Part shown: in pieces, positions 9,402 through 28,455 of the stretch
Layout: the number at the start of each line of letters is the position of its first letter
Position numbering within the stretch: the stretch's first letter is position 1
DNA from: Polyangiaceae bacterium
GTDB taxonomy: Bacteria > Myxococcota_A > Polyangia > Polyangiales > Polyangiaceae
Direction of reading: 5' to 3'
NCBI GenBank assembly: GCA_025934595.1
Contig: JAICXU010000001.1
Coordinates: forward strand, 1-38,693
Length of the DNA: 38,693 bases
Program-made: the position numbers and the translations under genes
The notes under the pieces: model-generated
The model's database searches: none
Seen by the model: only the letters and a program-made list of their open reading frames with translations
Told to the model about the DNA's origin: nothing

Positions 9402-9410
9402 ACGAGCGAT

Positions 9411-10937
9411 CTATTTGCCGCGCTCGGCAGCGGCAGTGACAGCGCCGCTCGAAGAATCCGGCCAGCGGGCCTGCTGCTGCTCGGATTTCGGAACCGGCGG
9501 GATCGCTTTCCACGCATCCCAGTACGAGCAGCCCGGATTCCACATCAGCCAACCGACGCCGCCGCCTTTGTCCGCCTCTCTCGTTTCTTGCGCGAGGTAC
9601 TTCGGACCGTACTCGGGCGAGCGCCACATGAACGCTTGTAGCCATGGCCGGATGATCACGTCCTTGTCGCCGGCCTTTTCGAGTCGATGAATCCCCGATC
9701 TCGTTCCGATCGCGATGATCTCGGGATGATTGCCGGGCTCGTCGAATCCCAAAAATCCCTTGTCGTAGTGCGACGGGTACACCATCGGCGAGAGCGCCTC
9801 GCATTCCTTACCGAGCTGTCCGATATCTTGTCCGAGGTTGTGCGTGTCGACGATGGTGCCCGTGGTCGTGACGCCGAAGATGTCGAGCGAGAGCGGCACG
9901 TGGTGCGCGTTGCTGATCTCGTGCGCCTTGTGCACGAACGCAGTCAGCACCTTCTCGCGAGACCCGTCGGCCGGAGGCAAAACGGCGTTTCCGAGGCCTT
10001 TTTGTACGGGAAAACGCACGTAATCGAGCTGAATCTCGTCGGCCCCGAGCGCGATCTCCTCCTCCTCTAGATCGAGGACGTATTGCTGCGCGTCGGGGTT
10101 CGCCGGATCGAGCCAGTCGATCGGATACGCTTTTCCGAACTTGCTCTGGATGGAGAGCTTCGGCGTCTTCACGCTCGTCCACGGATCGTGGAAGCACGAG
10201 ATGCGCATGATGACGTACACGCCATATTTGTGCGCGAAGCGGATCGTGCGCGCGAGATCCGCGATGGGCGGATGTGCGGCAGCGCCGTTGTCGATCGCGA
10301 TCTGCACCTTGGTCGGATACGTGATCGGGCCCATGTAGTCTTTGCCGTCGAGAACGATCGCATTGATGTTGCGCGCCTGCATGCGCTCGAGCGTCTGCTG
10401 CAAGGGATGCACGGCGTAGATGCCCCCCAAATAAATTCCACGGAGCGCTTTGTCGGCGGGCCATGACCACCGCTCTTCATCGGGCGATTTGTAGGCTTCG
10501 GTAATGAGATGCGGGATTTTGATCTTCTTCCCCGGGAAGACGGCGCCCTGCTTCGAGAGCTCCATCATGAGGTCGTCCCACAAGTAGATGTCGGTGAGGT
10601 CGAGGTACTCCTTCGCAATCGCTTGGATGGATTCTTTTGCCTGCACCGTGTGCGTCACGGTGACCTTGCCGTTTTCCTCGACCGCGACTCCGCCTTTCGG
10701 CAGCTTCGCTTTCACCCAGTCGATGAATGCGACCTTCGGCGCGGTCGGTTGCGCGGGCGCGCTCGAATCGGCCGGTGCCGCGAGCGCGGATGCGGTGTCG
10801 GTCGATGCCGACGGGACGGCGGGTCCGACATCGTGGACGACAGGCGACTCCGCATCGCCCGGACGACTGCTCGCCCGATCTCCCGCGCACGAGGACGTGA
10901 ACAAACCGACGAGCACGAGAGCCGACAAGCGCTTCAT
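9411..10937 (-). CDS. Lipoprotein with LysM-like segment and putative glycoside-hydrolase-like TIM-barrel domain (GHL10/DUF4015-type)
   Basis: 508-aa ORF. Lipobox LFTSSC. The LysM-like stretch is HTVQAKESIQAIAKEY...PGKKIKIP. Motifs NAIVLDGKDY, YVIMRISCFHD and EIQLDYVRFP are as I recall for the DUF4015 putative hydrolase family. Confidence 0.6.
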   Translation of the reverse strand: MKRLSALVLVGLFTSSCAGDRASSRPGDAESPVVHDVGPAVPSASTDTASALAAPADSSAPAQPTAPKVAFIDWVKAKLPKGGVAVEENGKVTVTHTVQAKESIQAIAKEYLDLTDIYLWDDLMMELSKQGAVFPGKKIKIPHLITEAYKSPDEERWSWPADKALRGIYLGGIYAVHPLQQTLERMQARNINAIVLDGKDYMGPITYPTKVQIAIDNGAAAHPPIADLARTIRFAHKYGVYVIMRISCFHDPWTSVKTPKLSIQSKFGKAYPIDWLDPANPDAQQYVLDLEEEEIALGADEIQLDYVRFPVQKGLGNAVLPPADGSREKVLTAFVHKAHEISNAHHVPLSLDIFGVTTTGTIVDTHNLGQDIGQLGKECEALSPMVYPSHYDKGFLGFDEPGNHPEIIAIGTRSGIHRLEKAGDKDVIIRPWLQAFMWRSPEYGPKYLAQETREADKGGGVGWLMWNPGCSYWDAWKAIPPVPKSEQQQARWPDSSSGAVTAAAERGK

Positions 10938-11006
10938 ATGTTTCTCAATCGTAGAATCTCAAACCCGAGATTTTTTCGCCATTATTTGCGCTATAAGGAT
11001 CACGCT

Positions 11007-11876
11007 TTGGATTGGCCGAAGAAAAATCCCAGCGAGCTCGACGCCAGCGAGAAGAAGAGCTTCGGTAAAGGTGTTTTCCGCAAGTGCGACGGTTGCTCGG
11101 CCACCCTTCCCGTCGAGGCGCTGCATGCGAGCTTCGAGGTATGTCCCGAGTGCGGACAGCATCACAAATTGTCCGCCCCGCGATGGCGCGATCTCTTGCT
11201 CGACGACGGCCGCTTCGAGGAATGGGACGCGCATCTCGCTCCCGCCGACCCGCTGAATTTTTCGGACGGTAAATCGTACCGCGATCGGATCGCCTCCGCG
11301 CAGAAGTCGTCGCACACGAAGGAAGCGATGGTCATCGGACGCGGCGCGATCGAGGGCCACGCCGTCGCGTACGGTGCGTTCGTGTTTTCGTTCATGGGCG
11401 GATCCATGGGGTCGGTCGTCGGCGAAAAAATCACGCGGCTCTTCGAGCGTGCTTCGAGCGAGCGCATCCCCGTCATTTTGCTGCAAGCCTCGGGCGGCGC
11501 GCGCATGCAGGAAGGCATCTTGAGCCTCATGCAAATGGCGAAGACCGTCTCGGCGCTCGAGCGATTTCGCGCGACGAAGATCCCGTTCTTCAGCGTCCTC
11601 CTTCATCCGACGACCGGCGGCGTCGCGGCGAGCTTCGCGCTCCTCGGTGACGTGAACATCGCGGAGCCGAACGCGCTCATCGGCTTCGCGGGCCCCCGTG
11701 TCATCGAGCAGACGATCCGCCAAAAATTGCCCGAGGGGTTTCAGCGGAGCGAGTTCTTGCTCACGCACGGCATGATCGATCGCATCGTGAGCCGGCTCGA
11801 CATGCGACGTGAGCTTGCGATGATGATGAGCCACCTGTCGCCGAAGCTCGAACGCGTCAGCGGTCCTCAAGCTTGA
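11007..11876 (+). CDS. accD: Acetyl-CoA carboxylase carboxyltransferase beta subunit
   Basis: Zn-ribbon CDGC-x15-CPEC, then an AccD-like carboxyltransferase core (GGSMG, LLQASGGARMQEG). Preferred start is TTG 11007, preceded by AAGGA. An alternative ATG at 10938 abuts the divergent gene's start codon. The tracked ORF start at 10509 is antisense read-through. Confidence 0.85.
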   Translation: MDWPKKNPSELDASEKKSFGKGVFRKCDGCSATLPVEALHASFEVCPECGQHHKLSAPRWRDLLLDDGRFEEWDAHLAPADPLNFSDGKSYRDRIASAQKSSHTKEAMVIGRGAIEGHAVAYGAFVFSFMGGSMGSVVGEKITRLFERASSERIPVILLQASGGARMQEGILSLMQMAKTVSALERFRATKIPFFSVLLHPTTGGVAASFALLGDVNIAEPNALIGFAGPRVIEQTIRQKLPEGFQRSEFLLTHGMIDRIVSRLDMRRELAMMMSHLSPKLERVSGPQA

Positions 11877-13090
11877 ACGATCTGGCAGCACGGCTCGCCG
11901 ATCTGTATTCACGCGTGCCACGGGGCATGGAGCTCGGGCTGGAGAAGATGCGTGCATCATGCACGCGTTTCGATCATCCCGAAGCCAAATTCAAGGCGAT
12001 CCATGTCGCGGGCACGAACGGCAAAGGCTCGGTATGCGCCACGGTCGAATCGGTGGCGCGCGCGGCGGGGATGAAGACGGGCCTCTATACGTCGCCGCAT
12101 CTCTCGAAATTCTCGGAGCGCATTCGCATCTCGGGTGAGCCGATTTCGGACGACGCGCTCTCTTCCACGCTGGGTCACGTGCTCGGCAGCGCGCCCGAGC
12201 TTTCGTTCTTCGAGGTCGCCACGATGACGGCATTCGTCGCGTTCGCGGAAGCAAACGTGGACCTCGCGGTCGTCGAGGTCGGCATCGGCGGGCGGCTCGA
12301 TGCGACGAACGTGCTCCCTTCCCCGCTCGCCACCGGCATCACGACGATCGCGTTCGATCACATGGACAAGCTCGGAAATTCTCTCGCGGAGATCGCGCGC
12401 GAAAAAGCGGGCATCGTGAAGCCGGGCGTTCCGCTCGTCGTCGGCGGCCGGGTCGAAGGCGAAGCGCTGTCGGCCATCGAATCGGTCGCACGCGAGCGCG
12501 GCGCACCGCTGAAGAGGGCGACGCACACGAATTTCGCGAACGGAACGGCGCTCGCGGGCGCGCATCAAGACGACAACGCCGACACGGCGCTCTGGCTCCT
12601 CTTCGAATCGAAAATTTTGAAGGGCAGGCCGAACCCGCAGCGTGACGTCTTCGAGGGATTCCAGAACGTGAGATGGCCGGGCCGCCTCGAGCGCGTGGAC
12701 ACGCCCGAAGGTCCGTGGCTCTTCGACGCCGCGCACAATCCCGAGGGCGCGCGCGCGCTCGCGACATATCTCGCGCGCGTGAAAGAACCTGTCGCGCTCG
12801 TGTTCGGCACGCTCGCCGACAAGGCGTGGCCCGAGATGCTCGACGTGCTCGCGCCGCTCGCGCAAAATCGCGTGTATCTTGCACCCAAAGGCCGCACCCC
12901 CTCGCCGACGGCTCTGCTCGGGGCACGTCACCCGCGAAAAATCGGCGAAAACGCGCAGGTTGCGATGCCTGCCGCGCGCGCGCTTGCGGGCGAAAAAGGC
13001 ATCGTCGTGGTCGCCGGCTCCATCTTTTTGGTCGGTGAGATTCGCAGCAAGCTCTTGGGCTTGCCGGTCGATCCGCCAGTCGCGCTTTGA
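11873..13090 (+). CDS. folC: Bifunctional folylpolyglutamate synthase / dihydrofolate synthase
   Basis: P-loop HVAGTNGKGS and a Mur-ligase-like layout. TTG start overlaps the accD stop (cTTGA). The accD-folC order is the classical one. Confidence 0.85.
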   Translation: MNDLAARLADLYSRVPRGMELGLEKMRASCTRFDHPEAKFKAIHVAGTNGKGSVCATVESVARAAGMKTGLYTSPHLSKFSERIRISGEPISDDALSSTLGHVLGSAPELSFFEVATMTAFVAFAEANVDLAVVEVGIGGRLDATNVLPSPLATGITTIAFDHMDKLGNSLAEIAREKAGIVKPGVPLVVGGRVEGEALSAIESVARERGAPLKRATHTNFANGTALAGAHQDDNADTALWLLFESKILKGRPNPQRDVFEGFQNVRWPGRLERVDTPEGPWLFDAAHNPEGARALATYLARVKEPVALVFGTLADKAWPEMLDVLAPLAQNRVYLAPKGRTPSPTALLGARHPRKIGENAQVAMPAARALAGEKGIVVVAGSIFLVGEIRSKLLGLPVDPPVAL

Positions 13091-13115
13091 CCGAAAAAAA
13101 TTGTATCCTCCCGCC

Positions 13116-13598
13116 ATGCCGAGCTTCGACATCGTCTCGAAAGTGCAGTGGAACGAGGTCGAGAACGCCTTGAACCAGGCGCAGAAGGAAATCGGACAGC
13201 GCTACGATTTCAAAGACACCGAGACCTCGCTCGAACGCAGCGAAGAAGGCATCACTCTCCGCTCGACGACCGAGGACCGCGTGAAGGCCGCGTTCGGCGT
13301 TTTGCAAGAAAAGCTCATCAAACGAAAAGTGAGCTTGAAGCAAGTCGAGGTGGGCGAGCCGGAGCCGTCCGGAAAAGGGCAGCGCCTCGTCGTGAAGATC
13401 AAAGAAGGCATCGAGGCCGAGCACGCGCGCAAAATCGTCGGGCGCATCAAGGAGTCGAAGCTCAAGGTGCAGGCGTCGATGCAAGAGCAGCAGATTCGTG
13501 TGACCGGAAAGAACAAAGACGATCTGCAGCAAGTGATTCAATTGGCGCGCGGCATCGATCTCCCGCTCGATCTTCAATTCATCAATTTCCGCGATTGA
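13116..13598 (+). CDS. yajQ: YajQ family (UPF0234) nucleotide-binding protein
   Basis: ATG at 13116. Product MPSFDIVSKVQWNEVENALNQAQKEIGQRYDFKD...KLKVQASMQEQQIRVTGKNKDDLQ...FINFRD is collinear with E. coli YajQ as I recall it. Confidence 0.9.
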   Translation: MPSFDIVSKVQWNEVENALNQAQKEIGQRYDFKDTETSLERSEEGITLRSTTEDRVKAAFGVLQEKLIKRKVSLKQVEVGEPEPSGKGQRLVVKIKEGIEAEHARKIVGRIKESKLKVQASMQEQQIRVTGKNKDDLQQVIQLARGIDLPLDLQFINFRD

Positions 13599-14992
13599 AA
13601 AAGCCCTCGAAGAGAGTCGAAGCGAAGGAAGCACCGCACGAGCGGCACCTGTTCGGCACGGACGGCATTCGCGGCGTCGCGAACGTGCATCCGATCACGC
13701 CGGATCTTTGCTTGCGCCTCGGTCGCGCGGTGGCGTCATTTGCAGGGAAAAACAAGGGGGATCCGCCGCGCATCCTGATCGGCAAGGACACGCGTCTCTC
13801 GGGTTACATGATCGAGCAGGCGCTCGCGGCGGGCATCTGCTCGATGGGCGGTCGCGTGATCTTGTGCGGTCCGATGCCCACTCCTGCCATCGCGCATCTC
13901 ACGACGAGCATGCGCGCCGACGCCGGCATCGTCATCAGCGCGAGCCACAATCCGTACGACGACAACGGCATCAAGATCTTCGGACGCGACGGATTCAAGC
14001 TTCCCGACGCTGCCGAAGCCGAGCTCGAATGGCTGATGTCGCACGAGCAGGAGCTCGCACGGCCCACGGGTCCCGGCATCGGACGCGCGGAGCGACTCGA
14101 GGACGCGCGCGGACGATACGTCGTCTTCGTGCGCAACACCTTCCCGGCCGATCTCTCCCTCACCGGTTTGCGGGTCGTCGTGGACGCGGCACACGGCGCG
14201 GCCTACAAAACGGCGCCGCTCGTCTTCTCGGAGCTCGGCGCCACGGTGTTCGCGATCGGCGTGAAGCCGAACGGCACCAACATCAACAAAGACGCGGGCG
14301 CGCTTCATCCGGACAACGTGCGCGCGGAGGTCGTGAAACGCGGCGCGGACATCGGAGTGGCGCTCGATGGCGACGCGGACCGGCTCATCGTCGTCGACGA
14401 AAAAGGCCAAATCGTCGACGGAGACGCGGTGATGGCGATGTGCGCCACGCGCATGATGAAAGAAGGCGCGCTGAAAAAAAAGACGCTCGTCTCCACCGTG
14501 ATGAGCAACCTCGGGCTCGAGCGCGCGATGGAAGCGCAAGGCGGCAAGCTCCTTCGCACCGCCGTCGGCGACCGCTACGTCGTCGAGGCGATGCGCGCCG
14601 GCGGATACAATCTCGGCGGCGAGCAATCCGGCCATCTCATTTTTCTGGATCACGCGTCCACGGGAGACGGCACCATCGCGGCGTTGCAGGTGCTCGCGCT
14701 CATGATGCGCGCCGAAAAACCGCTCTCGACGCTCGCGCACACGTGCATGACTCGCGTGCCGCAAATTTTGGAGAACGTCGTGCTTCGGGCGAGGAGGCCC
14801 ATCGACGAGATGAAGACGATGAACGCCGAGGCGGAGCGGGTGCGGCGCGCGCTCGGCGACGAAGGTCGCGTCTTCATTCGCTGGAGCGGCACCGAGCCGA
14901 AGCTGCGCATCATGATCGAAGGTCCGGACGAAGAACGCCTAGCCGATTGGGCGCGCGACCTCGCACGCGCAGCCAAACGCGACACGGCATGA
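13595..14992 (+). CDS. glmM: Phosphoglucosamine mutase
   Basis: FGTDGIRG near the N-terminus; phosphoserine loop SASHNPYDDNGIK; metal loop ALDGDADR. The only in-frame start just upstream of FGTDGIRG is TTG 13595, which overlaps the yajQ stop (aTTGA). The tracked start at 13148 lies inside yajQ. Confidence 0.88.
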   Translation: MKKPSKRVEAKEAPHERHLFGTDGIRGVANVHPITPDLCLRLGRAVASFAGKNKGDPPRILIGKDTRLSGYMIEQALAAGICSMGGRVILCGPMPTPAIAHLTTSMRADAGIVISASHNPYDDNGIKIFGRDGFKLPDAAEAELEWLMSHEQELARPTGPGIGRAERLEDARGRYVVFVRNTFPADLSLTGLRVVVDAAHGAAYKTAPLVFSELGATVFAIGVKPNGTNINKDAGALHPDNVRAEVVKRGADIGVALDGDADRLIVVDEKGQIVDGDAVMAMCATRMMKEGALKKKTLVSTVMSNLGLERAMEAQGGKLLRTAVGDRYVVEAMRAGGYNLGGEQSGHLIFLDHASTGDGTIAALQVLALMMRAEKPLSTLAHTCMTRVPQILENVVLRARRPIDEMKTMNAEAERVRRALGDEGRVFIRWSGTEPKLRIMIEGPDEERLADWARDLARAAKRDTA

Positions 14993-15555
14993 AGTGGCTT
15001 ATTTTTGCTTGTATTTTATGTGCAGGGTGCAACCATTCACCCGCGAGCTCGACGCCTGTGACGACCACCGCGTCGATTCCGAGCGCGACGGCGTCCACGC
15101 CGGCAAGCGCAGACCCGGCTCCGAGCGCGACGGCGACCGTGGCTTCGAACGGGGATCCCTGCGCGCACGCATCCGCATGGGCGGTCGATCGAGCGCTCGA
15201 TCAAAAGGGCGGCGACATCCAGATCCTCGCGTGGCGTCAGAAGTCCGACGATCGCCCCCTTTACGTCGACGAAGCGCTCGTGTGGCAACACGGCGAAGCC
15301 GGCTGGACGCTCGCGCAAGTGTATCGCCACCCGAAAGAAGACAACGCGTTCCATCTCTCGATCGTGTGCGATGCGCCGTATCAGCCCGAGAAATCGTACG
15401 ACCATGCGCCCAAGGTGAAAGACGTGAAAGATTTTTTGAAGAACACGACGTGGGCCGATGGGCTCGTCGGGTTCAAGCTCGACGCAGGCAAGGCGTGCAC
15501 GGACAACTGGTCGCGCGTGATCGGCGCCCCACCGCCTGCGAACGTTCTCGAGTAA
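14989..15555 (+). CDS. Lipoprotein, function unknown
   Basis: ATG 14989 overlaps the glmM stop (ATGA). MKWLIFACILCAGC lipobox, then a Thr/Ser/Pro/Ala linker and a globular domain. It is the only credible part of the Arg-rich tracked ORF 13708..15555. Confidence 0.65.
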   Translation: MKWLIFACILCAGCNHSPASSTPVTTTASIPSATASTPASADPAPSATATVASNGDPCAHASAWAVDRALDQKGGDIQILAWRQKSDDRPLYVDEALVWQHGEAGWTLAQVYRHPKEDNAFHLSIVCDAPYQPEKSYDHAPKVKDVKDFLKNTTWADGLVGFKLDAGKACTDNWSRVIGAPPPANVLE

Positions 15556-15594
15556 GGAAGCTTTCGGCGCGCGGCCCGTAGAACGGGGCGGGCC

Positions 15595-16170
15595 ATGTCG
15601 ATCGCGCGATTTGCCGTATTTTCTGCCGTTCTAGCGATCGCAGGTGTAGCGCTCGTCGCATGCGGCGCAGCCCACGGCGCGGATTTCCAGTCCGCGGACG
15701 CGAGCGCCGAGTCGGGCCACCGATGGCCGGGCTCGACCGACGACTCCGGCACGACGAACGGCGGTGACGGATCGAGCGTCGAAACCGACGGCGGCACGGA
15801 GCTCGACGGCGCGATCGTCGATGGCCCGACCGCGGACGAGTGCCTCGAAGGTTGGGCGGCATATGATGGCGGGTGCCCTGCCCCGACCATCACCGACTCG
15901 TATGTGGGCAACGGGTGCGTGGGTACCACGGGATGGTTCGTGGACGGCGCGAACTTCCAAGTCCGCCAGCACAACACCGGCGTCGCCGATGACGGGCCGC
16001 AATCGTTCGGCGCGAACGGCAATCAGATGATGTGGAACGTCATCACGACGACGCAGCTCTGCGTGACGGTGTCGGCGGGCGCGAAGGACGCGTGGGTGGG
16101 ACACACCATCTACGTCGTGAATCCCGACGGCAAATCCTCGAACTCCGTCATCGTCGGCGACAGGCTCTGA
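15595..16170 (+). CDS. Lipoprotein with Gly/Asp-rich linker and C-terminal beta-rich (Ig-like?) domain, function unknown
   Basis: 191-aa ORF. Signal peptide with lipobox AGVALVAC. Non-Arg-biased composition. Confidence 0.6.
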   Translation: MSIARFAVFSAVLAIAGVALVACGAAHGADFQSADASAESGHRWPGSTDDSGTTNGGDGSSVETDGGTELDGAIVDGPTADECLEGWAAYDGGCPAPTITDSYVGNGCVGTTGWFVDGANFQVRQHNTGVADDGPQSFGANGNQMMWNVITTTQLCVTVSAGAKDAWVGHTIYVVNPDGKSSNSVIVGDRL

Positions 16171-16266
16171 ACCGCCTATTTTTGGCTCGATCCGCTATCC
16201 TCGAGGGATCGTTCGAGTCCCGGTGTGGAAGCGGAATAGGCCTCGGATGCCCAGTTTCATGGGACT

Positions 16267-17013
16267 TCAGAAGCTGAGGCCGCCGTCGACGTCCATCGTC
16301 CGGGCGTTGAAGTAGTCGCACTCGATCGTGAACTTCACCGCGCGCCAGATGTCGTCGGGCTCGCCGATGCGCCCGCTCGGGATCATCGCGACCACCGCAT
16401 CGCGCGCTTTTTGATTCATGCCGCGTGTCATCGGCGTCTCGATCATGCCGGGCGCGATCGCCGTGCAGCGAATTCCGAATTGTGCCCATTCGCGCGCCCA
16501 CGTGAGCGTGTTCGCGGCGAGCGCGGCTTTCGCGGCCACGTAGTTCGATTGCCCGCGATTGCCGTGCCGCGAGATCGACGAGATGTTGACGACGACGCCG
16601 GGCCTCACGTTTTTCTCGGCCATGTAGGCGACGACCTCTTGCGCCATGAACGTGGCACCCGAGAGATTCACGTCCAGCACGACCTTCCAGTCTTGCTTCG
16701 ACAATTTTTTGATCGCGCCGGTCTCGCGATCTTTTTTCACGAGCAGGCCGTCGCGAAGGATGCCCGCGCAATTCACGAGCGCGTTCAATCCACCCATTTT
16801 TTCCGCCGCCCATGCGACGAACGCCTCGCAATGGTGCGGGTCGGACACGTCGAGCTTGCGCTGATGAATGCTCTGCGGCAGCTCCGACAAAAGCGATTCG
16901 TTGATGTCGCCGGCGGCGACTTGCGCGCCTTCGGCGGCGAGCTGACGCGCGAAATGGGCGCCCATGCCCGAAGCCGCGCCGGTGACGATGACTTTCAATT
17001 CGGAAAGCTTCAC
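16267..17013 (-). CDS. Short-chain dehydrogenase/reductase, 3-hydroxyacyl-CoA dehydrogenase / acetoacetyl-CoA reductase-like (PhaB-like role inferred from context)
   Basis: GTG 17013 is preceded by GGAG and overlaps the phaC stop (GTGA). TGAASGMG Rossmann motif, NISS...YVAAK catalytic motif. The upstream 145 codons of the tracked ORF overlap phaC out of frame. Confidence 0.8.
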   Translation of the reverse strand: MKLSELKVIVTGAASGMGAHFARQLAAEGAQVAAGDINESLLSELPQSIHQRKLDVSDPHHCEAFVAWAAEKMGGLNALVNCAGILRDGLLVKKDRETGAIKKLSKQDWKVVLDVNLSGATFMAQEVVAYMAEKNVRPGVVVNISSISRHGNRGQSNYVAAKAALAANTLTWAREWAQFGIRCTAIAPGMIETPMTRGMNQKARDAVVAMIPSGRIGEPDDIWRAVKFTIECDYFNARTMDVDGGLSF

Positions 17014-18050
17014 GAGAGATCTCCTGAGTGGATGAATGATTGCGCCGGCGCGTCGGCGTGCTCTTCGAGCCACGCGGCAACGGCGGGATACAAAACCTTC
17101 GATGCTTTCGATCCCACGACCGCGCCGACGTCGCCGCCGGACACGCGGAGCACGTCCTTCACGCTGGCGCCCGAAAAATCTCCGAGCGCGGTCGCGGCGT
17201 CGGGCGGACAAATCGCATCGCGGTCGGCCACGATGGACATCACGGGAGCCTTGATTTTCCCTAGATCCACGCGTTTTCCGGCCACGCGATGCTCGCCGCG
17301 AACGAGCGCGTTCGATTGATAGAGGTCTCGGATGTACGTGGCGTACGCGGCGCCGGGAAACGGCACGTTGTCCTGCGACCAAGCCTCGAGCGCGTCGAAC
17401 GCTTCGCGCGCCTTCGGATCGTGCATGCGAAGGGCGATGCCGATCCACTTCGCGATCGGGAGCGTCGGCCGCATCGCGGAAAATCCGCTTTGCATTTGCC
17501 AGGCAGGCAGATTTCCTGCGTCGGCGATCGCCTGCGCATCGAAGTGCTTCGGATCGACGAGCTCACCGAGCAGACCCGCCTTCGAAAAGTCGATGGGCCC
17601 GAGCAAGTTGACGAGCGCCGCGATCTCGCCGGGATGGAGCGCAGCGTGAATGGCGGCGAGCGTGCCGCCCATGCAGTAGCCGAGGAGCGCGTATTTCTGC
17701 GCGCCCGAATCTCTCCGCACGGCGCGCGCCGCATGACGAAGGCGCGCGAGCACGTCGTCCCAGGAAAAGTAACGGTCCTCGTCCTCGGCGATACCCCAAT
17801 CGAGCAGATACACCGAGCGCTGCGGACGCGCGCGTACGAGCGACTCCACGAGGCTCGCGCCGGGCCTGAGATCGAGCACGAACCACCGGTTGATCATCGA
17901 TGGCACGAGGAAGAGCGGCGTCGCGTTCGAACGAAGCGGCACACCTGCCGCGTCCTGAGGCTGTGCGCCGCGGAATCGGTAGAGCGTGGCCGTGCCGATC
18001 TTCAGGATCGCGTCTTTGGGCGTCGCCGCGACGGTGACCGCGCTCGTCAT
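17010..18050 (-). CDS. phaC: Class III/IV-type PHA synthase catalytic subunit PhaC (copy 1), with Asp in place of the conserved catalytic His
   Basis: ATG 18050 lies 2 nt after the upstream gene's stop. Lipase-box-like GYCMGG (Cys nucleophile), ADRDAICPP (Asp). The expected GGH(I/V)G reads SGGDVGAVVG (codon GAC). 346 aa, typical of class III/IV size. Confidence 0.85.
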   Translation of the reverse strand: MTSAVTVAATPKDAILKIGTATLYRFRGAQPQDAAGVPLRSNATPLFLVPSMINRWFVLDLRPGASLVESLVRARPQRSVYLLDWGIAEDEDRYFSWDDVLARLRHAARAVRRDSGAQKYALLGYCMGGTLAAIHAALHPGEIAALVNLLGPIDFSKAGLLGELVDPKHFDAQAIADAGNLPAWQMQSGFSAMRPTLPIAKWIGIALRMHDPKAREAFDALEAWSQDNVPFPGAAYATYIRDLYQSNALVRGEHRVAGKRVDLGKIKAPVMSIVADRDAICPPDAATALGDFSGASVKDVLRVSGGDVGAVVGSKASKVLYPAVAAWLEEHADAPAQSFIHSGDLS

Positions 18051-18052
18051 CG

Positions 18053-18322
18053 TCAGCCCCCGACCGTGAACATCTCCGACGAGCGCTTGACGGCCTCGAG
18101 CGAGAGCCGGCGCCACTCGGCGTTCAGCGCCGATGCGTACGCGAACGACTCTTTCGTGAGCTTCGCGAGCTCGTCGACCACCTGCGTCGCCTGCTCGTTC
18201 CGCTTCGTCTCCATCTTTGCGAGCTCGTCGTAGAAAGCCGTGGTGCGCGAGACCGCGTCTTCCATCGATTTCTTCCAAAACGCCTGGAATTGCTGCAACT
18301 GCACATTTTCTTTGTCGGCCAT
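18053..18322 (-). CDS. Small coiled-coil PHA granule-associated protein (phasin / PhaE-like)
   Basis: ATG 18322 is preceded by GGAGGA. The 89-aa helical product MADKENVQLQQFQAFWKKSMED... sits between phaR and phaC. The WKKS[MF] motif is shared with the small protein at 24816. Confidence 0.6.
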   Translation of the reverse strand: MADKENVQLQQFQAFWKKSMEDAVSRTTAFYDELAKMETKRNEQATQVVDELAKLTKESFAYASALNAEWRRLSLEAVKRSSEMFTVGG

Positions 18323-18363
18323 GATGTCCTCCGTTCGCCGCACATTCCTGCGGAACGCGCGGG

Positions 18364-18392
18364 AACATACGAACCGCGCATCGGACCGTCAA
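18364..18392 (-). promoter_or_regulatory. Sigma70-like promoter for the phasin-phaC-SDR operon: TTGACG-17 nt-TATGTT
   Basis: Minus strand reads TTGACG gtccgatgcgcggttcg TATGTT, about 40 nt upstream of the GGAGGA-ATG at 18322. Confidence 0.5.
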
Positions 18393-18401
18393 GGCATTTT
18401 G

Positions 18402-18416
18402 TGTTGCAGTGCAACA
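18402..18416 (-). promoter_or_regulatory. Putative PhaR operator: perfect 7-1-7 palindrome TGTTGCA-G-TGCAACA (core TGC-N3-GCA) upstream of phasin-phaC-SDR
   Basis: Read directly from the sequence. It sits in an AT-rich patch 9 nt upstream of the -35 element below. The TGC-N3-GCA core matches my recollection of alphaproteobacterial PhaR boxes. Confidence 0.55.
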
Positions 18417-18420
18417 AAAT

Positions 18421-18969
18421 CTATTTTCGACGCGCGCGTACGGTCTTCTTCAGCTTTTCGAGCTCGCGGCGAAGCTCGGCGACTTGATCCGCAGACGAAG
18501 CCGTCGAGACTGGCGGCGGCGGCGGCATCGGCGCGGCTTGCGGCGGCGGCCCCGGCTCCTGCGCTTGCGCCCATGGGTTCGATCCCATCATCATGCGAGC
18601 CAGCGCGTTGCCCGCGGAGAACGGCGCGGTCGCGAGCGGAACGTACGGCGAGAGCGCCTGCGCTTGCGAGCGCGCGCGCATGTAGATCTCGAGCGCCCAG
18701 GACATGTATCGGCCAAAAAACTCGGCCAATGCTTCGTTTTCGAGGCGGATCAACTGCGTCAGAAACGGCACCGGCAAGAGCCGCGCGCCGCCCCGGCTCT
18801 CGAGGATGATCTGCGTGAGTGTCGCCGCTGTCAGATCTTCGTCGGTCTTCGCGTCGACCACCGTGACATCGGCGCCGACTTTGATCTTGTGAGCGAGCTC
18901 GTCGAGCGTGATGTACTTGCTGTCGACGGTGTCGTAGAGGCGGCGGTTCGAATATTTTTTGACGATCAT
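18421..18969 (-). CDS. phaR: Polyhydroxyalkanoate synthesis repressor PhaR
   Basis: MIVKKYSNRRLYDTVDSKYITLDEL...VVDAKTDEDLT...LTQIILE matches the conserved PhaR N-terminal DNA-binding domain. Confidence 0.9.
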   Translation of the reverse strand: MIVKKYSNRRLYDTVDSKYITLDELAHKIKVGADVTVVDAKTDEDLTAATLTQIILESRGGARLLPVPFLTQLIRLENEALAEFFGRYMSWALEIYMRARSQAQALSPYVPLATAPFSAGNALARMMMGSNPWAQAQEPGPPPQAAPMPPPPPVSTASSADQVAELRRELEKLKKTVRARRK

Positions 18970-19050
18970 GCGCGGCAGCCACTATCGCACAAGGGTCCGA
19001 CACCGCAACCTGCACCTCGATCCGAGACCGGACGACCAAGGCGTGCATTT

Positions 19051-19065
19051 TTGTGCATTGCAACA
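19051..19065. promoter_or_regulatory. Putative PhaR operator 2 (TTGTGCA-T-TGCAACA; 12/15 identical to site 1) in the phaR / MFS divergent region
   Basis: TGCATTGCA is a 4-1-4 palindrome. The right half, TGCAACA, is identical to site 1. It is flanked by a GTGCATT direct repeat (19043-19049 and 19053-19059). Confidence 0.45.
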
Positions 19066-19069
19066 TTTT

Positions 19070-19102
19070 TGGCTTGACGATTGCGGTCGCCGGCCGTATT
19101 TC
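19070..19102 (+). promoter_or_regulatory. Candidate promoter for the 19164-28444 gene block: sigma54-like TGGC-N7-TTGC (19070-19084), overlapping a sigma70-like TTGACG-17 nt-TATTTC (19074-19102)
   Basis: TGGCTTGACGATTGC has GG and GC at the -24/-12 spacing. Alternatively TTGACG, then 17 nt, then TATTTC. The two readings are mutually exclusive and neither is verified. Confidence 0.3.
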
Positions 19103-19117
19103 ACGCCTCGCTCGGCT

Positions 19118-19132
19118 TGTTGCAGCGCACTA
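19118..19132. promoter_or_regulatory. Putative PhaR operator 3 (TGTTGCA-G-CGCACTA; left half identical to site 1), 32 nt upstream of the MFS start codon
   Basis: Contains TGCAGCGCA (TGC-N3-GCA). 12/15 identical to site 1. Confidence 0.35.
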
Positions 19133-19163
19133 GAGCGCCGCGTCGAGCCCCGGAGATCGCCCG

Positions 19164-20381
19164 ATGAATGCTCGCCCGCGTACGACCCTCGGCCTTTCCG
19201 CGCTCCTCCAAGCCGTCGGCGGCGGCCTCGGCTGGTCGCTGGTTCCTGCCGTGATGCCCGACATCGCAAAGGATCTGACGTTCGGGCACGCGAGCGCAGG
19301 TGCGGTCTTCGGCGCCGCGTCTCTCGGCATCGCGCTCGCCTCGCCCTTCGGAGGCAGCGCGGTCGATCGCTTCGGCGCGCGTCGCACGGCCGGATTCGCG
19401 ATGCTGTTCGGGGCGGTGACGTGCGGTTTGAGGGCGTTTGCGCATACGCCGGCCATTCTCGCGGCGTGCATGTTTCTCTTCGGGCTGCACATCGGATTCG
19501 TGGCGCCGGCCCTTCCCAAGGCTCTCTCTGCGCACGTGCCGCCGGCTCGCTTCGCGCGAGCGAACGGTCTCACCGTGCTCGCGTACACGTTCGGCACGGC
19601 GATCACGATGGTGACGGCGCGCACGTGGCTCTTGCCGTATCTCGGTGGTTGGCGACACGCGATGCTGTTTGCGGCCGGGGCAATGGCGCTCGCAGGCGTG
19701 GCGTGGCTCGTCTGCATTCGTGACGGATTTATTGCGACGCACCATGCGACCTTGCGATCGTCGTTCGCGCTTCTCGGAAATGGCGCCGTTCGGCGCGTCG
19801 CCGCCGCGCACTTTCTGCTCTTCGGGGGCTACCTCGCGCTCCTCTCGTCGCTCCCGCATCTGTTGATCGAAGCCGGCGTAGACAAGACGAAGGTCGGCAT
19901 TTCGATCGCGGCGTGGCTCGCAACGGCCGGTCTCGCGAATTTCGTGGGACCGTCATTTTCCGACCGCATGGAACGTCGCAAGCCCGTGATTTTAGGAGGA
20001 GCAGCGTTGGCGGGCCTCGCCCTGACCGCCGTCGCGTTCGCTCCGGCAGCACAAAAGCCCTTGTTTTTGGCGGTCGCGGCGATCGGTGGCGGCGCATTCG
20101 CTCCTCTTCTTTTGACGATCCCGTTTGAGCTGCCGGGCGTTGGCTTGGCGCGAGGCGGAGCGGCGCTCGGTCTCTTGATGATGCTCGGCCAGGTCGGTGG
20201 GTTCTTGCTCCCCGTCTTGGTTGGTGGAACATCTGAGGCCGCCGGTTTTCGGGCGGCGATCCTGACCCTCGCCATGCTCCATGCGTTCATCTTGATCCCC
20301 GCTCTCGGTCTGCCCGAGACGGGCCGTGCGGGCGATCATTCGGGCAGCGCTTGGCAAAAGAACACGGGCGACGTCGCGTGA
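19164..20381 (+). CDS. MFS transporter
   Basis: 405 aa, about 12 hydrophobic segments. MFS motif A-like GGSAVDRFGARRT between TM2 and TM3. Confidence 0.8.
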   Translation: MNARPRTTLGLSALLQAVGGGLGWSLVPAVMPDIAKDLTFGHASAGAVFGAASLGIALASPFGGSAVDRFGARRTAGFAMLFGAVTCGLRAFAHTPAILAACMFLFGLHIGFVAPALPKALSAHVPPARFARANGLTVLAYTFGTAITMVTARTWLLPYLGGWRHAMLFAAGAMALAGVAWLVCIRDGFIATHHATLRSSFALLGNGAVRRVAAAHFLLFGGYLALLSSLPHLLIEAGVDKTKVGISIAAWLATAGLANFVGPSFSDRMERRKPVILGGAALAGLALTAVAFAPAAQKPLFLAVAAIGGGAFAPLLLTIPFELPGVGLARGGAALGLLMMLGQVGGFLLPVLVGGTSEAAGFRAAILTLAMLHAFILIPALGLPETGRAGDHSGSAWQKNTGDVA

Positions 20382-20386
20382 AGATC

Positions 20387-21346
20387 ATGAAACGCGCGCG
20401 ATCGATTTGGCTTCTCGCGACATTCGGCGTCGCGATCGGCGCGCTCCTCGCGTGCTCGAGTGGATCGGATCGTCAGTGCACGGTCGGCGCGGACTGCGCG
20501 AGCGGCGCATGCAACGCCGACGGCACGTGCGTCGCGGTGGCGAGCGGCAGCACCGACGGCGGCACGAGCCTCGGTGACGGAGGATCCACCACCGGATCCG
20601 ACGGCAGCACGTTTCCGATCGACGCGTCGCCTCTCGCATGTGCGACGGACGGCGGCGCGCTCGGCCACGACAACGTCCCGATCGCAGCGGGTCTCACCGC
20701 GACCTTCGAGGTCGCGACGAACGAGACGGTAGATACGGCCGGCACCGACAACGGCGATGGCTCCAAAACATGGGATTTTACCGTATCGTTCGCGTCGGAC
20801 CAAAGCGTGATCGTGCAAACGCTCTCGCCGTCCGGCGCATGGTGGGCTCCCGACTTCACGACCGCCACGTACGCGTCGAAGCTCGTGCAAGCACAGAGCA
20901 CGCTCGGTGTCTTCGACTACGGCGCGAATTCGCTCGATCTCGTCGGCGTCGTTTCACCGACGAGCGACGGCGTCACCGAGACCGAGCTCACCTACGCGAC
21001 GCCGATCCCCATCCTCGCGTTCCCGCTCCACATGGCGCAGACGTGGTCGACGACGTCGAACGTCAGCGGCAAGTTGAACGGCGTCACGGCGCTCTACTCC
21101 GAGACCTACGACTCGAAGGTCGACGCGTACGGCACGGTGAAGACGCCCTATGGAAATTTTGCTGCACTGCGAGTAGGAACGTTGCTGACGCAAAATGCAG
21201 GCGCCGTCACGAAGACGCGCACCTACGCGTGGGTCACCGCGTGCTTCGGCACGATCGCGAAGGCCACGTCGACGTCGATGACGAACACGGGCACACCCGG
21301 CGAGAACTTCACGCAGACCGCGGAGCTCATGAGGCTTGCCCCGTGA
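20387..21346 (+). CDS. Lipoprotein A of an envelope module (paralog of 23918..24784), function unknown
   Basis: ATG 20387 gives MKRARSIWLLATFGVAIGALLAC (lipobox). Cys-rich CTVGADCASGACNADGTC, Gly/Ser/Thr linker. The conserved core shares WDF[TS]V, TYDxKVDAxGT, ALRVxT, CFGxxAxATS and F-T-x-[TA]-A-E-[LV]-x-R-L motifs with the downstream paralog. Confidence 0.7.
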   Translation: MKRARSIWLLATFGVAIGALLACSSGSDRQCTVGADCASGACNADGTCVAVASGSTDGGTSLGDGGSTTGSDGSTFPIDASPLACATDGGALGHDNVPIAAGLTATFEVATNETVDTAGTDNGDGSKTWDFTVSFASDQSVIVQTLSPSGAWWAPDFTTATYASKLVQAQSTLGVFDYGANSLDLVGVVSPTSDGVTETELTYATPIPILAFPLHMAQTWSTTSNVSGKLNGVTALYSETYDSKVDAYGTVKTPYGNFAALRVGTLLTQNAGAVTKTRTYAWVTACFGTIAKATSTSMTNTGTPGENFTQTAELMRLAP

Positions 21347-22323
21347 ATGCGGTACGCGAGCTGCTCTTTCGCCTAGGTCTGGGTCTAGGCCTCGGTCTTC
21401 TTCTCTGTCTCGAAGCAGGGTGCATGACTTTCCATCAAGGTCCGATGCCGGGCGAGCCGAAAACTGCGTCGTTCGCGAACGTCGAAGGCGTGCGCGTTCG
21501 CTACGTCGACACGGGCGGTGACAAGCCGGCCGTCGTTCTCATTCATGGATTCGCGTCGTCGCTCGATGCATGGGCCACCGTCATCCCCGAGCTCGCGAAG
21601 ACCCACCGCGTGCTCGCCCTCGATCTCAAAGGGTTCGGTTGGACCGATCGACCCGAGGGTGACTATTCGCCCGACGCCGAAGCGCAGCTCGTGCTGGCGC
21701 TCATGTCGCAGCGCAACATTCCACGCGCGGATCTCGTCGGGCATTCCTGGGGCGCGTCGGTGGCGCTCGCGGCGGCGATGCGCGCGCCCGATCGCGTGAA
21801 GCGTCTCGCGCTCTATGACGCGTGGGTCTACGAAGGCCAGCTTCCGGCGACGTTTCACTGGTCGCGCACGGGCGGCGTCGGCGAGATGCTGTTCGGTCTG
21901 TATTACAAGCAGCGCGCCGACGAGAAGATGGCGATGGCCTTCTACGATCAGAGGTACGTGACCGAGGAGCTCGTCGACGCGGTGGAAGAAGCGCTCGACA
22001 GGCCAGGCACCGTGGCGGCGGCGCTCGCGGCGGTGCGCGGACAGCGCTTCGCGGGCGTCGAGGCGAATTACCGTAAAATTCAGCAGAAAACGTTGCTTCT
22101 GTGGGGACGCGAGGATGCCGTCGCCACGCTCGATTTCGGCGAGCGGCTCGCGCGCGATCTGCCGAACGCACACCTCGTGGTGTATCCGCGCTGCGGACAT
22201 TTTCCGATGATCGAGGCGCGCGCGGAGTCGAATCGCGACCTCGTCGCCTTCTTGAGCGACGCGCCCGAGCCGACGACGACTAGCGAGAAACCCGCGCCTG
22301 GATCGAGCGAGGCCACGCCGTGA
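21343..22323 (+). CDS. Secreted alpha/beta-fold hydrolase (esterase/lipase-like), possible lipoprotein
   Basis: GTG 21343 overlaps the upstream stop (GTGA). (LG)4-containing signal peptide ending LEAGC. HGFASS oxyanion region, nucleophile elbow GHSWG, C-terminal CGHFPMIE His motif. Confidence 0.8.
   Translation: MNAVRELLFRLGLGLGLGLLLCLEAGCMTFHQGPMPGEPKTASFANVEGVRVRYVDTGGDKPAVVLIHGFASSLDAWATVIPELAKTHRVLALDLKGFGWTDRPEGDYSPDAEAQLVLALMSQRNIPRADLVGHSWGASVALAAAMRAPDRVKRLALYDAWVYEGQLPATFHWSRTGGVGEMLFGLYYKQRADEKMAMAFYDQRYVTEELVDAVEEALDRPGTVAAALAAVRGQRFAGVEANYRKIQQKTLLLWGREDAVATLDFGERLARDLPNAHLVVYPRCGHFPMIEARAESNRDLVAFLSDAPEPTTTSEKPAPGSSEATP
21373..21396 (+). repeat. Degenerate hexamer repeat CTAGGT CTGGGT CTAGGC CTCGGT, encoding (Leu-Gly)4 in the hydrolase signal peptide
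   Basis: Read directly. It shares the ttcgcCTAGGTCT lead-in with the 23951 repeat. Confidence 0.85.
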
Positions 22324-23915
22324 GAGGGTCGGCGCCGTTCGCTCATGCTCTCGCGCTCGGCGTGTTCGCGCTCGTGCTTGCGCAATCGAAGCGCGCGCGC
22401 GCGACGGGCTTCAGCGACCTCGGCGAGGACATCGTGCAGCGCGACAAAGTCGCGGTCACCGTCGACGGTTACTTGCGCACGCGCGGCACGGCCTACGGCA
22501 ACCTCGATCTCGATCGCGGCCCCACGCCTTCCGGGCAGCTCCTCTTTCCGGTCTCGCAGGCCGACCCGAAAGCGCAGTGGCTGACGAATTGGGACATGCG
22601 CCTTCGCACCGACATCGCGATCTATGCGCCCGGGCAAACCCTCGCCGTGAAGGTCCGCATGGACGCGCTCGACAATCTCGTTCTCGGGAGCTTGCCGAAC
22701 GGCGCGCCGTCCGCGACCACGTCACAAAACGCTCCAAATCAAGCGCTTTCGTTGAAACGCGCCTACGGCGAGGCGCTCCTTCCATTCGGTCTCCTCGCCG
22801 CAGGTCGCATGGGATCGCATTGGGGCCTCGGCATTCTCACGAACGGCGGCGACTGCCTCGATTGCGACAGCGGCGACGCGGCCGATCGCATCGCGCTCGT
22901 GACGCCGCTCGCGGATCACATCTTCGCGCTCGCCTACGATTTCTCCGCGATCGGTCCGCTGCAAGGAACGACGACGCAGCCGAATCACGTCGTCGACGTC
23001 GAGCCATCGGTGGACGTGCACACGCTCACGTTTGCTGCGATGCACTATAAAAACGATGCATCGCGAGAGCGGCGTCGACGTGCCGGTCGCACGACGGTGG
23101 AATATGGCGCGTACTTTTCGCATCGTTGGCAGAACGACGACATCCCTGCTTCGTATCTCCCCGTCGCGACGCCGGTCGCGGTCACGCCGGCGGAGGTGAT
23201 GCATCGCGGATATCAAGCGAACGCCGCCGACGCATGGGGACGCCTCACCTTCCCGGTCGCGCGCGTCGAGTTCGAGATCGCGTATTTGCAAGCATCGGTC
23301 GATCAAGCGTCGCTCCTGCCGGGCGCGCTCCTCCGCGATCCGGTGACGAGCCATCAGCTCGGCGCGGCGCTCGAGAGCGATGTCGGCGCGCCGGCGGATC
23401 GATTCGGGTTCGGGCTCGATATGGGTTACGCGAGCGGCGACCCGGCGCCGGGGTTCGGCGTGAATACGCCGGCAAACGCGCAGCAGCCGAAGCCGGGCGA
23501 CCTCGACGGGCCGCAAGCTTCGCCGCCGAACGACACGCGCGTCGACAACTTCCGCTTTCATCCGGACTACCGCATCGATCAAATTCTCTTTCGCGAGATC
23601 ATTGGCACCGTGACCGACGCCGCCTACGTTCGTCCGCACGTGCGCGCGCGCGTCGCGCAATGGACGAGCGCGCAAATCACGACGAGCCTCGCGGGCATCG
23701 CATCGACGGCAGCGAATGCGTCCTCGACGCCCGGAGGAGCGGCGCCGCTCGGCGTGGAGCTCGATCCGCAAATCGCCTATTCGGGCAGAGAAGGCCTCTT
23801 CGTCGCGCTCGAAGGCGGATGGCTTTTGCCGCTCGCCGGTCTCGACAATCCGCAACTTCACATGGACGCAAAAATGGTAGGCCTCGTGCGCCTGCGAATC
23901 GCGTTTCTGTTCTGA
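22320..23915 (+). CDS. Outer-membrane beta-barrel protein (porin/channel-like), function unknown
   Basis: GTG 22320 overlaps the upstream stop (GTGA). Signal peptide ALALGVFALVLAQS. Many amphipathic beta-strand segments. C-terminal ...LRIAFLF ends in Phe as in OM barrels. Confidence 0.65.
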   Translation: MRGSAPFAHALALGVFALVLAQSKRARATGFSDLGEDIVQRDKVAVTVDGYLRTRGTAYGNLDLDRGPTPSGQLLFPVSQADPKAQWLTNWDMRLRTDIAIYAPGQTLAVKVRMDALDNLVLGSLPNGAPSATTSQNAPNQALSLKRAYGEALLPFGLLAAGRMGSHWGLGILTNGGDCLDCDSGDAADRIALVTPLADHIFALAYDFSAIGPLQGTTTQPNHVVDVEPSVDVHTLTFAAMHYKNDASRERRRRAGRTTVEYGAYFSHRWQNDDIPASYLPVATPVAVTPAEVMHRGYQANAADAWGRLTFPVARVEFEIAYLQASVDQASLLPGALLRDPVTSHQLGAALESDVGAPADRFGFGLDMGYASGDPAPGFGVNTPANAQQPKPGDLDGPQASPPNDTRVDNFRFHPDYRIDQILFREIIGTVTDAAYVRPHVRARVAQWTSAQITTSLAGIASTAANASSTPGGAAPLGVELDPQIAYSGREGLFVALEGGWLLPLAGLDNPQLHMDAKMVGLVRLRIAFLF

Positions 23916-23917
23916 TC

Positions 23918-24784
23918 ATGATCACCAAGCGCACACAAACCCGTCTTCGCCTAGGTCTAGGTCTAGGTCTAGGTCTGAGTCTTCTCGCCTGCGGCGAGAA
24001 CCAAACCCACCCTGTTCGTGACGACTACGACGCCGGCGTCCCTGCTCCTCTCGCATGCGTCCCGAATCTCGATGGCAAGATCGACGCGAACGAAATTCAG
24101 CCTGCGATCGGAATCCCGCTTTCCTACTTGGTGTCGCCGGCGGGCGTCACGCGTGACGTGAACGTCGCGGGCACCGTCGACTCCGATGGCCATACGGTGT
24201 GGGATTTTTCGGTGGACTACGCGAACGACGAAGTCGCGCGGATCCAAGCGCAAAATCTCGCCGGAAAGTGGTACGCGTCGTCGTTTCCCGCGAGCGGATT
24301 CGTCGTCGCGCAAGACGCGGGTGACCGGCTCGAAGGCGTCATTCTCTTCGACGCGAGCGGATATCGGCTCGCCGGGCTCGCGTCGACCGACGAGAACCCG
24401 CCCGAGGGAAAGACGCTTTATGTGTATGATACACCTGTCGATCTGTTTCGATTTCCGATGACGCCCGGAGTCTCGTTCACGTCGACAGGAAACGTGCAGA
24501 ATGCAACTTTGCGCGGGCTGCCGTACGCCGGAAAGGACACGTACGACGTGAAGGTCGACGCGGCCGGCACGTTGATCTTGCCGTCGGTCACGTTCACGCA
24601 AGCGCTTCGCGTGCGCACGACGCTTACGGCGACGCCCGCGGCGGGACAACCGGCAACGACGCGCCAAGTTTCATTTCTCTTCGAATGCTTCGGTGAGGTG
24701 GCGCGTGCCACGAGCCAGACGAACGAGACGCAAGACGATTTCACGACGGCGGCCGAAGTTCGCCGCCTCGGACTTTTGCCATGA
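23918..24784 (+). CDS. Lipoprotein B of the envelope module (paralog of 20387..21346), function unknown
   Basis: ATG 23918 lies 2 nt after the barrel gene's stop. MITKRTQTRLRLGLGLGLGLSLLAC lipobox. Core collinear with lipoprotein A (see that entry). Confidence 0.7.
   Translation: MITKRTQTRLRLGLGLGLGLSLLACGENQTHPVRDDYDAGVPAPLACVPNLDGKIDANEIQPAIGIPLSYLVSPAGVTRDVNVAGTVDSDGHTVWDFSVDYANDEVARIQAQNLAGKWYASSFPASGFVVAQDAGDRLEGVILFDASGYRLAGLASTDENPPEGKTLYVYDTPVDLFRFPMTPGVSFTSTGNVQNATLRGLPYAGKDTYDVKVDAAGTLILPSVTFTQALRVRTTLTATPAAGQPATTRQVSFLFECFGEVARATSQTNETQDDFTTAAEVRRLGLLP
23951..23980 (+). repeat. Tandem hexamer (CTAGGT)x4 plus a degenerate fifth unit CTGAGT, encoding (Leu-Gly)n in the lipoprotein B signal peptide
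   Basis: Read directly: ctaggtctaggtctaggtctaggtctgagt. Confidence 0.9.
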
Positions 24785-24815
24785 CTAGCCTGACGAAGAG
24801 GCGCGGAGAAAAATC

Positions 24816-25103
24816 ATGATGACGTGGGACAGCTGGAAAAAAAGCTTCGACGTGTGGGAGAACGAGACCGCGAAATTTCTCGAGACGTGGGTGAAGAGCC
24901 CGCTCGTGCTCGGCCCGAGCGGCATGATGCTCACGCAGGCGATGAAGGCGAAGGCGCAATACGACAAAGCCCTCGCGCAATTTTGGGGCAGCGTCGGCTT
25001 GCCCACCAAGCGCGATCAAGAGCGCACGCTCCATCTCTTGAACAAGCTCGAATCGCGTCTGCTCGATCTCGAGGAGCAGCTGGAAGAGCAGCAGAAGGCC
25101 TAG
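24816..25103 (+). CDS. Small PHA synthase accessory subunit, PhaR(class IV)/PhaE C-terminal-like
   Basis: GGAG, then 7 nt, then ATG. The 95-aa product has [18 protein letters not shown] and [31 protein letters not shown]. This resembles the ...NVPTKEDIANV...LEEKVDRIEE region of Bacillus PhaR / PhaE as I recall it. Confidence 0.6.
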
Positions 25104-25122
25104 CCCTCGACCTCGACCTAGG
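25104..25122 (-). repeat. Inverted, degenerate copy of the same hexamer family (minus strand CCTAGGT CGAGGT CGAGGG) in the gap between the PhaR/E-like gene and the acyl-CoA synthetase gene
   Basis: Plus strand reads ccctcgacctcgacctagg, directly after the TAG stop at 25101-25103. Confidence 0.6.
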
Positions 25123-25141
25123 CAAAGACGGAGAACCCATC

Positions 25142-28444: not shown

Positions 28445-28455
28445 CGATCACGCGC

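Follow-up and report, generated by a model that had tools for sequence, protein, structure and literature searches.

Does a soil myxobacterium carry a polyhydroxyalkanoate (PHA) synthase without its catalytic histidine, and is such a change a feature of the species, a variant within a population or an error? The question is raised by phaC1, which occupies positions 17010..18050 on the minus strand of a 38,693-nucleotide stretch of the Polyangiaceae bacterium contig JAICXU010000001.1 (assembly GCA_025934595.1), referred to here as the window, the closest named relatives of which are Polyangiaceae metagenome-assembled genomes (MAGs). The gene encodes a short class III/IV-like PHA synthase homolog of 346 amino acids (aa). 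Its minus strand reads GTG TCC GGC GGC GAC GTC GGC at positions 17144..17124, and the GAC codon (plus strand 17130..17132) encodes Asp307. An earlier note on this DNA, made from the letters alone, had taken this Asp to replace the catalytic His of the Cys-Asp-His triad with Cys and Asp kept, a description confirmed by the sequence, by alignment with the second copy, phaC2, and by anchoring on the structure 5hz2. We find that Asp307 is a real allele and a derived one. The reading that we prefer, with a probability of about 75%, is that it represents a recent loss-of-function or strongly hypomorphic allele, tolerated in one sublineage in which PhaC2 is intact.

Residue 307 in alignment and structural model

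BLASTP alignment of the two copies (38% identity, E = 1e-69) sets D307, within VSGGDVGAVV, opposite the His of the phaC2 motif GGHVG. In addition, the 90% cluster of the window protein holds one other member, P0121, which differs by D307H alone and thus provides the His allele for comparison with crystal structures. Using phmmer (E = 3.4e-26), the GGH of P0121 aligned on S-GH(508)IAG of the PHA synthase from C. necator (PDB 5hz2), with Cys126 on Cys319 and Asp278 on Asp480. The earlier note had proposed an alignment with class III/IV sequences as a check of the column; the one made here, with this structure, puts residue 307 on His508. With the Asp allele as query, HMMER slipped by one residue against 5hz2 because the motif anchor is lost; this shifted register was dropped in favor of the anchored alignment given by the His allele. 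The distance from Asp278 to residue 307 is 29 residues, and the catalytic D310 and H339 of the class III enzyme from Arthrospira are likewise 29 residues apart (PMC10215190).

In an AlphaFold2 model of PhaC1 built with 56 homologs (predicted local distance difference test, pLDDT, 90; predicted template modeling score, pTM, 0.90), strand 120-125 leads into C126, strand 270-275 into D278 and strand 298-303 into residue 307, where a helix begins. These positions of residues 126, 278 and 307 are the canonical triad sites, in the topology described for Chromobacterium PhaC (PMC5509742). Searching with this model in Foldseek, we obtained a crystal structure of PhaC for each of the best 15 matches (E = 1e-20 to 6e-16, template modeling score ~0.7-0.75); other alpha/beta hydrolases appeared only at E = 1e-12 or weaker. 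Judged by alignment and predicted fold, residue 307 is the catalytic His column.

The histidine among homologs

Of the best 120 homologs, which are 55-91% identical, 118 fit the pattern GGH[VI]G, and Asp is found in the window protein alone. A MAFFT alignment of 123 homologs has His in all 122 ungapped rows at column 307, and the orthologs at 89-91% identity, in which the earlier note had suggested looking for Asp, carry His without exception. At greater distances, 150 representatives of 50%-identity clusters have His in 137 cases and Asp in none; their non-His rows are mostly sequences in which homology ends before the C-terminus or in which the tail is truncated or frameshifted, and one full-length relative, P0204, has Gln at this column. 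A search of genome contigs found only relatives at ~60% identity. Since His is present throughout the relatives surveyed, it is the ancestral state, from which Asp was derived by one base (CAC to GAC).

This distribution bears on the suggestion that PhaC1 could be a regulatory pseudo-synthase or an enzyme with an alternative base. A conserved pseudoenzyme would keep its substitution across orthologs, and Asp307 occurs in a single sublineage within one population. As something that evolved with the locus, neither suggestion is supported, given that the relatives surveyed lack Asp and that sister strains have His at the same locus.

Separately, in 21 of the 150 diverse PhaC-like relatives (P0126-P0275), Ser occupies the position of the nucleophilic Cys, and judging from this residue these 21 may be hydrolases rather than synthases.

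Two alleles in soil metagenomes

Alleles were read from independently assembled contigs, not reads, of public soil metagenome runs that we mapped on the window. The polymorphic base is 17132, where C on the plus strand gives Asp and G gives His (GAC vs CAC). Unbroken contigs of 11 runs have C (X1, X2, X3, X9, X11, X12, X13, X16, X19, X20 and X26), seven runs from four studies have G (X4-X7, X8, X10 and X14), and the contigs of X15, X17 and X18 break at this very base. The exact Asp protein was also found in two ENA assemblies, on a SPAdes NODE contig (L010) and on a MEGAHIT k141 contig (L011). A k-mer census with a 61-base Asp-specific query, each 31-mer of which spans the single-nucleotide polymorphism (SNP), detected the allele in at least 20 runs and added 14 runs, among them those of studies P15, P16 and P17 and run X28 of P4, of which the other four runs carry His. 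Altogether, independent assembly or detection gave Asp in at least 25 runs, which come from no fewer than 13 studies, and with three assemblers, counts that do not amount to an unbiased allele frequency, the Asp census drawing on contigs and the k-mer index and the His census on contigs alone. Both alleles occur in studies P1, P4 and P5. Of the possibilities that had been raised for this codon, the single-base strain variant is what the data show, with P0121 identical except for D307H and with C or G at 17132 depending on the metagenome; a sequencing error is contradicted by the repeated independent assembly of Asp.

The allele is also linked to its surroundings. An intergenic SNP at 19082 is T in the window, X1 and X9 (all Asp) and C in X4, X7, X8 and X14 (all His), and it is phased with His on contigs L006 and L007. 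A further SNP at 24487 co-varies with the allele as well, so that the two co-varying sites lie 2 and 7 kb away from 17132. A consensus scan of the phaR upstream region around 19082 for promoters and terminators found none, including no sigma-70-like consensus. An argument for recombination from the four-gamete test was dropped, as the contigs of one metagenome are not phased. The population as a whole is near-clonal (~99.8% identical), with sublineages that differ by ~0.1-0.3%. Asp307 is a real, derived allele, and its occurrence is best explained by a recent origin in one near-clonal population of an uncultured soil Polyangiaceae bacterium; today it is common in many soils.

Selection and state of the gene

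The alignment of homologs has 91 columns with a conservation of at least 95%, and PhaC1 deviates at a single one of them, residue 307. Compared with the nearest ortholog, in locus L001 (89% aa identity), the ratio of nonsynonymous to synonymous substitution rates (dN/dS) is 0.14 for phaC1, 0.04 for the 89-aa open reading frame (ORF) preceding it and 0.10 for the downstream reductase. Within the population, the Asp and His alleles of phaC1 have no further difference. The 62 SNPs listed for the interval 9000..28900 comprise 39 synonymous, 20 nonsynonymous and 3 intergenic ones, of which phaC2 holds five synonymous and one nonsynonymous. These figures point to a gene that stood under long purifying selection and then acquired, very recently, a single lesion at a catalytic residue, with no signs of decay. 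The earlier note had found it striking that the locus with the repressor carries the deviant enzyme and the downstream block the intact one; as a design of the locus this contrast dissolves, because the deviation of phaC1 is a young polymorphism.

Class membership and comparison with known synthases

PhaC1 shares with the PhaC superfamily, which has an alpha/beta-hydrolase fold with a CAP subdomain, its sequence and fold, the lipase box with Cys126 after strand 120-125, and Asp278 as the catalytic Asp after strand beta8; the catalytic His after strand beta9 is lacking in the allele of the window. By its sequence, the window protein is a PhaC by descent that falls outside the functional definition. 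TIGR01836 (class III) was the best-scoring family. Copy 1 reaches 226.9 bits and copy 2 reaches 253.3 bits, both below the cut-off of 365.3, and the two copies can be placed in a diverged clade related to class III. Like the class III enzymes Allochromatium vinosum PhaEC and Arthrospira platensis PhaC, PhaC1 has a size of ~38 kDa, no class I N-terminal domain, the G-X-C-X-G motif, the 29-residue spacing and, in its orthologs, the C-terminal motif GGH(V/I)G. Unlike them, its locus has an 89-aa ORF upstream instead of a ~40-kDa PhaE, and the window allele is without the catalytic His. Crystal structures of class I enzymes (C. necator 5HZ2/5T6O, Chromobacterium 5XAV/6K3C, Aeromonas caviae 9KNJ-L) match at E = 1e-26 to 1e-16 with a 1:1 correspondence of the triad in the His allele, whereas identity is only ~20-24% and the N-terminal domain is absent from PhaC1. 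Overall, the enzyme kind is already known, i.e., PhaC1 can be described from its sequence as a diverged class III-like PhaC with a natural active-site allele.

Triad-His mutants of PhaC have been engineered in the laboratory, e.g., at His477 of Chromobacterium; they concern the same residue, which in PhaC1 D307 is changed by a natural allele of appreciable frequency in the wild. The older literature reportedly includes the class I mutant H508Q and the class III mutant H331Q.

A second His can take over in one group of synthases: in the class II enzyme PhaC1 of P. aeruginosa, His453, which lies beside the catalytic Asp, can replace the triad His480 (PMC1636056). In classes I and II, the catalytic Asp is followed by a His (D480-H481) that corresponds to Ala279 in the window protein, and the column is Ala, Thr or Ser across the family. 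Having Ala279 in place of His453, PhaC1 would therefore not have the class II rescue available.

We also observed a His within the clade itself, His254 (GEH-RVAG; codon 17289..17291), which is invariant in 122 of 122 PhaC1-clade homologs, is Met in copy 2 and is absent from class I.

Predicted consequence and rival explanations

The triad His of PhaC forms a hydrogen bond with the Asp and deprotonates the Cys thiol, which can then attack the acyl-coenzyme A thioester, and all three triad residues of the Chromobacterium enzyme are essential for poly(3-hydroxybutyrate), P(3HB), production (PMC5509742). In the D307 protein, the imidazole that deprotonates Cys126 would be gone and a second carboxylate would stand beside Asp278. 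Cys126 would then no longer be loaded from the thioester, or only at a rate lower by orders of magnitude, making PhaC1-D307 a null or strongly hypomorphic PHA synthase; catalytic impairment, which had been among the earlier suggestions, is the likely consequence of the change. The lineage would rely on the intact PhaC2 module, consisting of a small ORF, an acyl-coenzyme A (CoA) synthetase and PhaC2, and the Asp allele might persist in its sublineage since the loss is tolerated, or by hitch-hiking.

Several points weigh against such a tolerated loss of function. In the runs examined, Asp is no rarer than His (11 vs 7 runs), and it occurs in at least 13 studies, which is an excess for a strongly deleterious mutation, and this high frequency and wide spread fit a simple deleterious loss somewhat uneasily. 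The two PhaC paralogs are co-conserved across Myxococcota, which speaks against a plain redundancy between them. A carboxylate can sometimes serve as a general base, and the clade-invariant His254 is present in PhaC1. Among the laboratory triad-His mutants of PhaC that we found, none is His-to-Asp. Finally, GGCGGC precedes the variable base on the coding strand, and the evidence consists of contigs rather than per-strand reads.

Because of the frequency and spread of the Asp allele, two functional explanations have to be kept alive. In their most far-reaching form, Asp307 would be maintained in soil populations by selection rather than being a neutral knock-out. The protein could be a dead PhaC1 that assembles with granule proteins or PhaC2 and shifts storage carbon or polymer type, as in a PHA-low ecotype, or it could be a functional Cys-Asp-Asp synthase, with a triad chemistry seen in no other PhaC. 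We consider maintenance by selection unlikely.

If PhaC1-D307 still works, Asp307, Asp278 or His254 could act as the base, giving a Cys-Asp-Asp synthase with altered rate or chain length, or with a bias towards hydrolase or thioesterase activity. The frequent and widespread allele would fit this, as would a protein that is otherwise undegenerated, the His254 shared by 122 of 122 clade members and the second His that replaces the triad His in class II (PMC1636056). However, Asp was found at this column in none of ~270 relatives, the class II back-up position is Ala279, the triad residues are essential in the class I enzyme tested (PMC5509742), and the change is so young that its persistence says little. 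A working Cys-Asp-Asp enzyme seems quite improbable to us.

In the other case, a non-catalytic pseudo-synthase would be selected that binds granules, the 89-aa partner, PhaR or PhaC2 and thereby tunes or suppresses PHA storage, as an adaptive loss or as a balanced ecotype polymorphism. Its intermediate-to-high frequency with both alleles in three studies is in line with this, and so are the missense nature of the change, which leaves fold and operon intact, and the linked upstream SNP at 19082. Yet Asp is conserved in no other lineage, the sublineages are only ~0.1-0.3% apart, so that drift or hitch-hiking suffices, and the evidence for expression is limited to two metatranscriptome contigs on the small ORF alone. 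We regard a selected pseudo-synthase as very doubtful.

A sequencing or assembly artifact, in which C after GGCGGC on the coding strand would be systematically miscalled as G, is extremely improbable. Sequence contexts of this type do provoke systematic Illumina miscalls, and the Asp contigs are all of low depth (2-7x) with His in the deep P4 runs (11-43x). Against this, 11 runs have unbroken contigs in which Asp is the only path or that of the majority, a result that a strand-specific error cannot repeatedly produce; 14 further runs were added by the k-mer index; both SPAdes and MEGAHIT assemblies have the Asp allele; low-depth His runs exist (X8, X10 and X14); and SNPs at distances of 2 and 7 kb vary together with the allele.

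Implications

Should the loss-of-function reading hold and Asp307 be a natural knock-out, closely related wild soil myxobacteria would differ in a carbon-storage enzyme, and the His and Asp alleles would form a ready isogenic pair for probing each of the conserved PhaC modules of Myxococcota. Should the Asp enzyme be active instead, no PhaC before it would have functioned without the triad His at this position, a case of relevance for the engineering of synthases. As to annotation, an active-site lesion can stay hidden behind a "PHA synthase" call in a MAG, and such a lesion needs a check against population data before it is read as species biology.

The phaR-phaC1 operon and the phaC2 module

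Features of the active site and of the surrounding genes are listed in Table 1.

Table 1. Coordinates in the window of the phaC1 active-site codons, the linked SNP and the genes of the two PHA modules
Feature	Position	Strand	Evidence or remark
Cys126 codon, nucleophile, lipase box GYCMGG	17673..17675	-	Cys in 123/123 homologs; aligns with C319 of 5hz2
Asp278 codon, catalytic Asp, DRDAICPP	17217..17219	-	Asp in 122/122 homologs; aligns with D480 of 5hz2
Asp307 codon GAC at the catalytic His position	17130..17132	-	Sequence; alleles read in independent contigs
SDR (short-chain dehydrogenase/reductase) / FabG-PhaB-like 3-oxoacyl reductase	16267..17013	-	GTG start overlaps the phaC1 TGA stop (GTGA)
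89-aa conserved small ORF	18053..18322	-	Stop 2 nt before the phaC1 ATG; translationally coupled
phaR, PHA synthesis repressor	18421..18969	-	PF07879, 88.7 bits; TIGR01848, 98.2 bits, below the 109.45 cut-off
T/C SNP	19082	.	113 bp upstream of the phaR start, divergent phaR/MFS promoter region
Genes in the ~5.8 kb between the two modules	19164..24784		Major facilitator superfamily (MFS) transporter; lipoprotein-like ORF 20351..21346; alpha/beta hydrolase 21424..22323; 531-aa ORF; lipoprotein-like ORF 23918..24784
95-aa small ORF, phaC2 module	24816..25103	+	Weak similarity to PhaE / class IV PhaR; PF09712 (E 0.002) and TIGR02132 (E 0.025) each short of the cut-off
Acyl-CoA synthetase (AMP-binding), phaC2 module	25142..26920	+	PF00501, E 1.4e-65
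phaC2	26886..27986	+	Triad intact: GYCLGG, EHDNIVP, GGHVG

The 89-aa ORF between phaR and phaC1 had been labeled a phasin, a label that we could not uphold, as it has no match in Pfam or NCBIfam, including the phasin and PhaE families. It is 95.5% identical in L001 and lies upstream of phaC1 in the more distant loci L002-L005 as well. A search for RNA recovered two soil metatranscriptome contigs of 151 nt, both covering this ORF, and none for the rest of the operon including phaC1. From its conservation and position, the ORF may encode a new small synthase partner or a phasin. The SDR gene 3' of phaC1 was seen in the window/L001 lineage only. In one Asp-allele contig (L010, ENA ERZ25417748), a 1-nt deletion in a T6 run, equivalent to 16705..16710, splits the SDR gene into ORFs of 114 and 137 aa; the contig has a coverage of 4.4x, the deletion is absent from the other Asp-allele contigs, and it may be an assembly error.

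The intact copy had been described as sitting in an unusual block. Instead, this block is the conserved divergent neighbor of phaR-small ORF-phaC1 in other Myxococcota: in three MAG loci (L002, L003 and L005), the phaC2 module directly adjoins the phaC1 genes in divergent orientation, and in the window the same pair is split by ~5.8 kb of other genes. The 95-aa ORF and the acyl-CoA synthetase gene are syntenic in all three of these loci, and in L003 and L005 the phaC1 orthologs have phaC2 orthologs (61-64% identity) as their neighbors. Given this synteny of modules across Myxococcota, PhaC1 and PhaC2 are ancient co-conserved paralogs. Their small partner ORFs of 89 and 95 aa have no detectable similarity to each other. 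The dedicated acyl-CoA synthetase suggests that PhaC2 polymerizes hydroxy acids activated directly to CoA esters.

Among the genes between the two modules, the two lipoprotein-like ORFs, which have no Pfam match, are paralogs of each other (32% identity, E = 1e-30). Outside the PHA genes, the 3' end of a folC-like gene (11873..13090) contains, in the P4 runs, ten SNPs within 70 bp (12902..12970), of which six are nonsynonymous, where the background is ~0.2%; this cluster looks like a short divergent or recombined tract.

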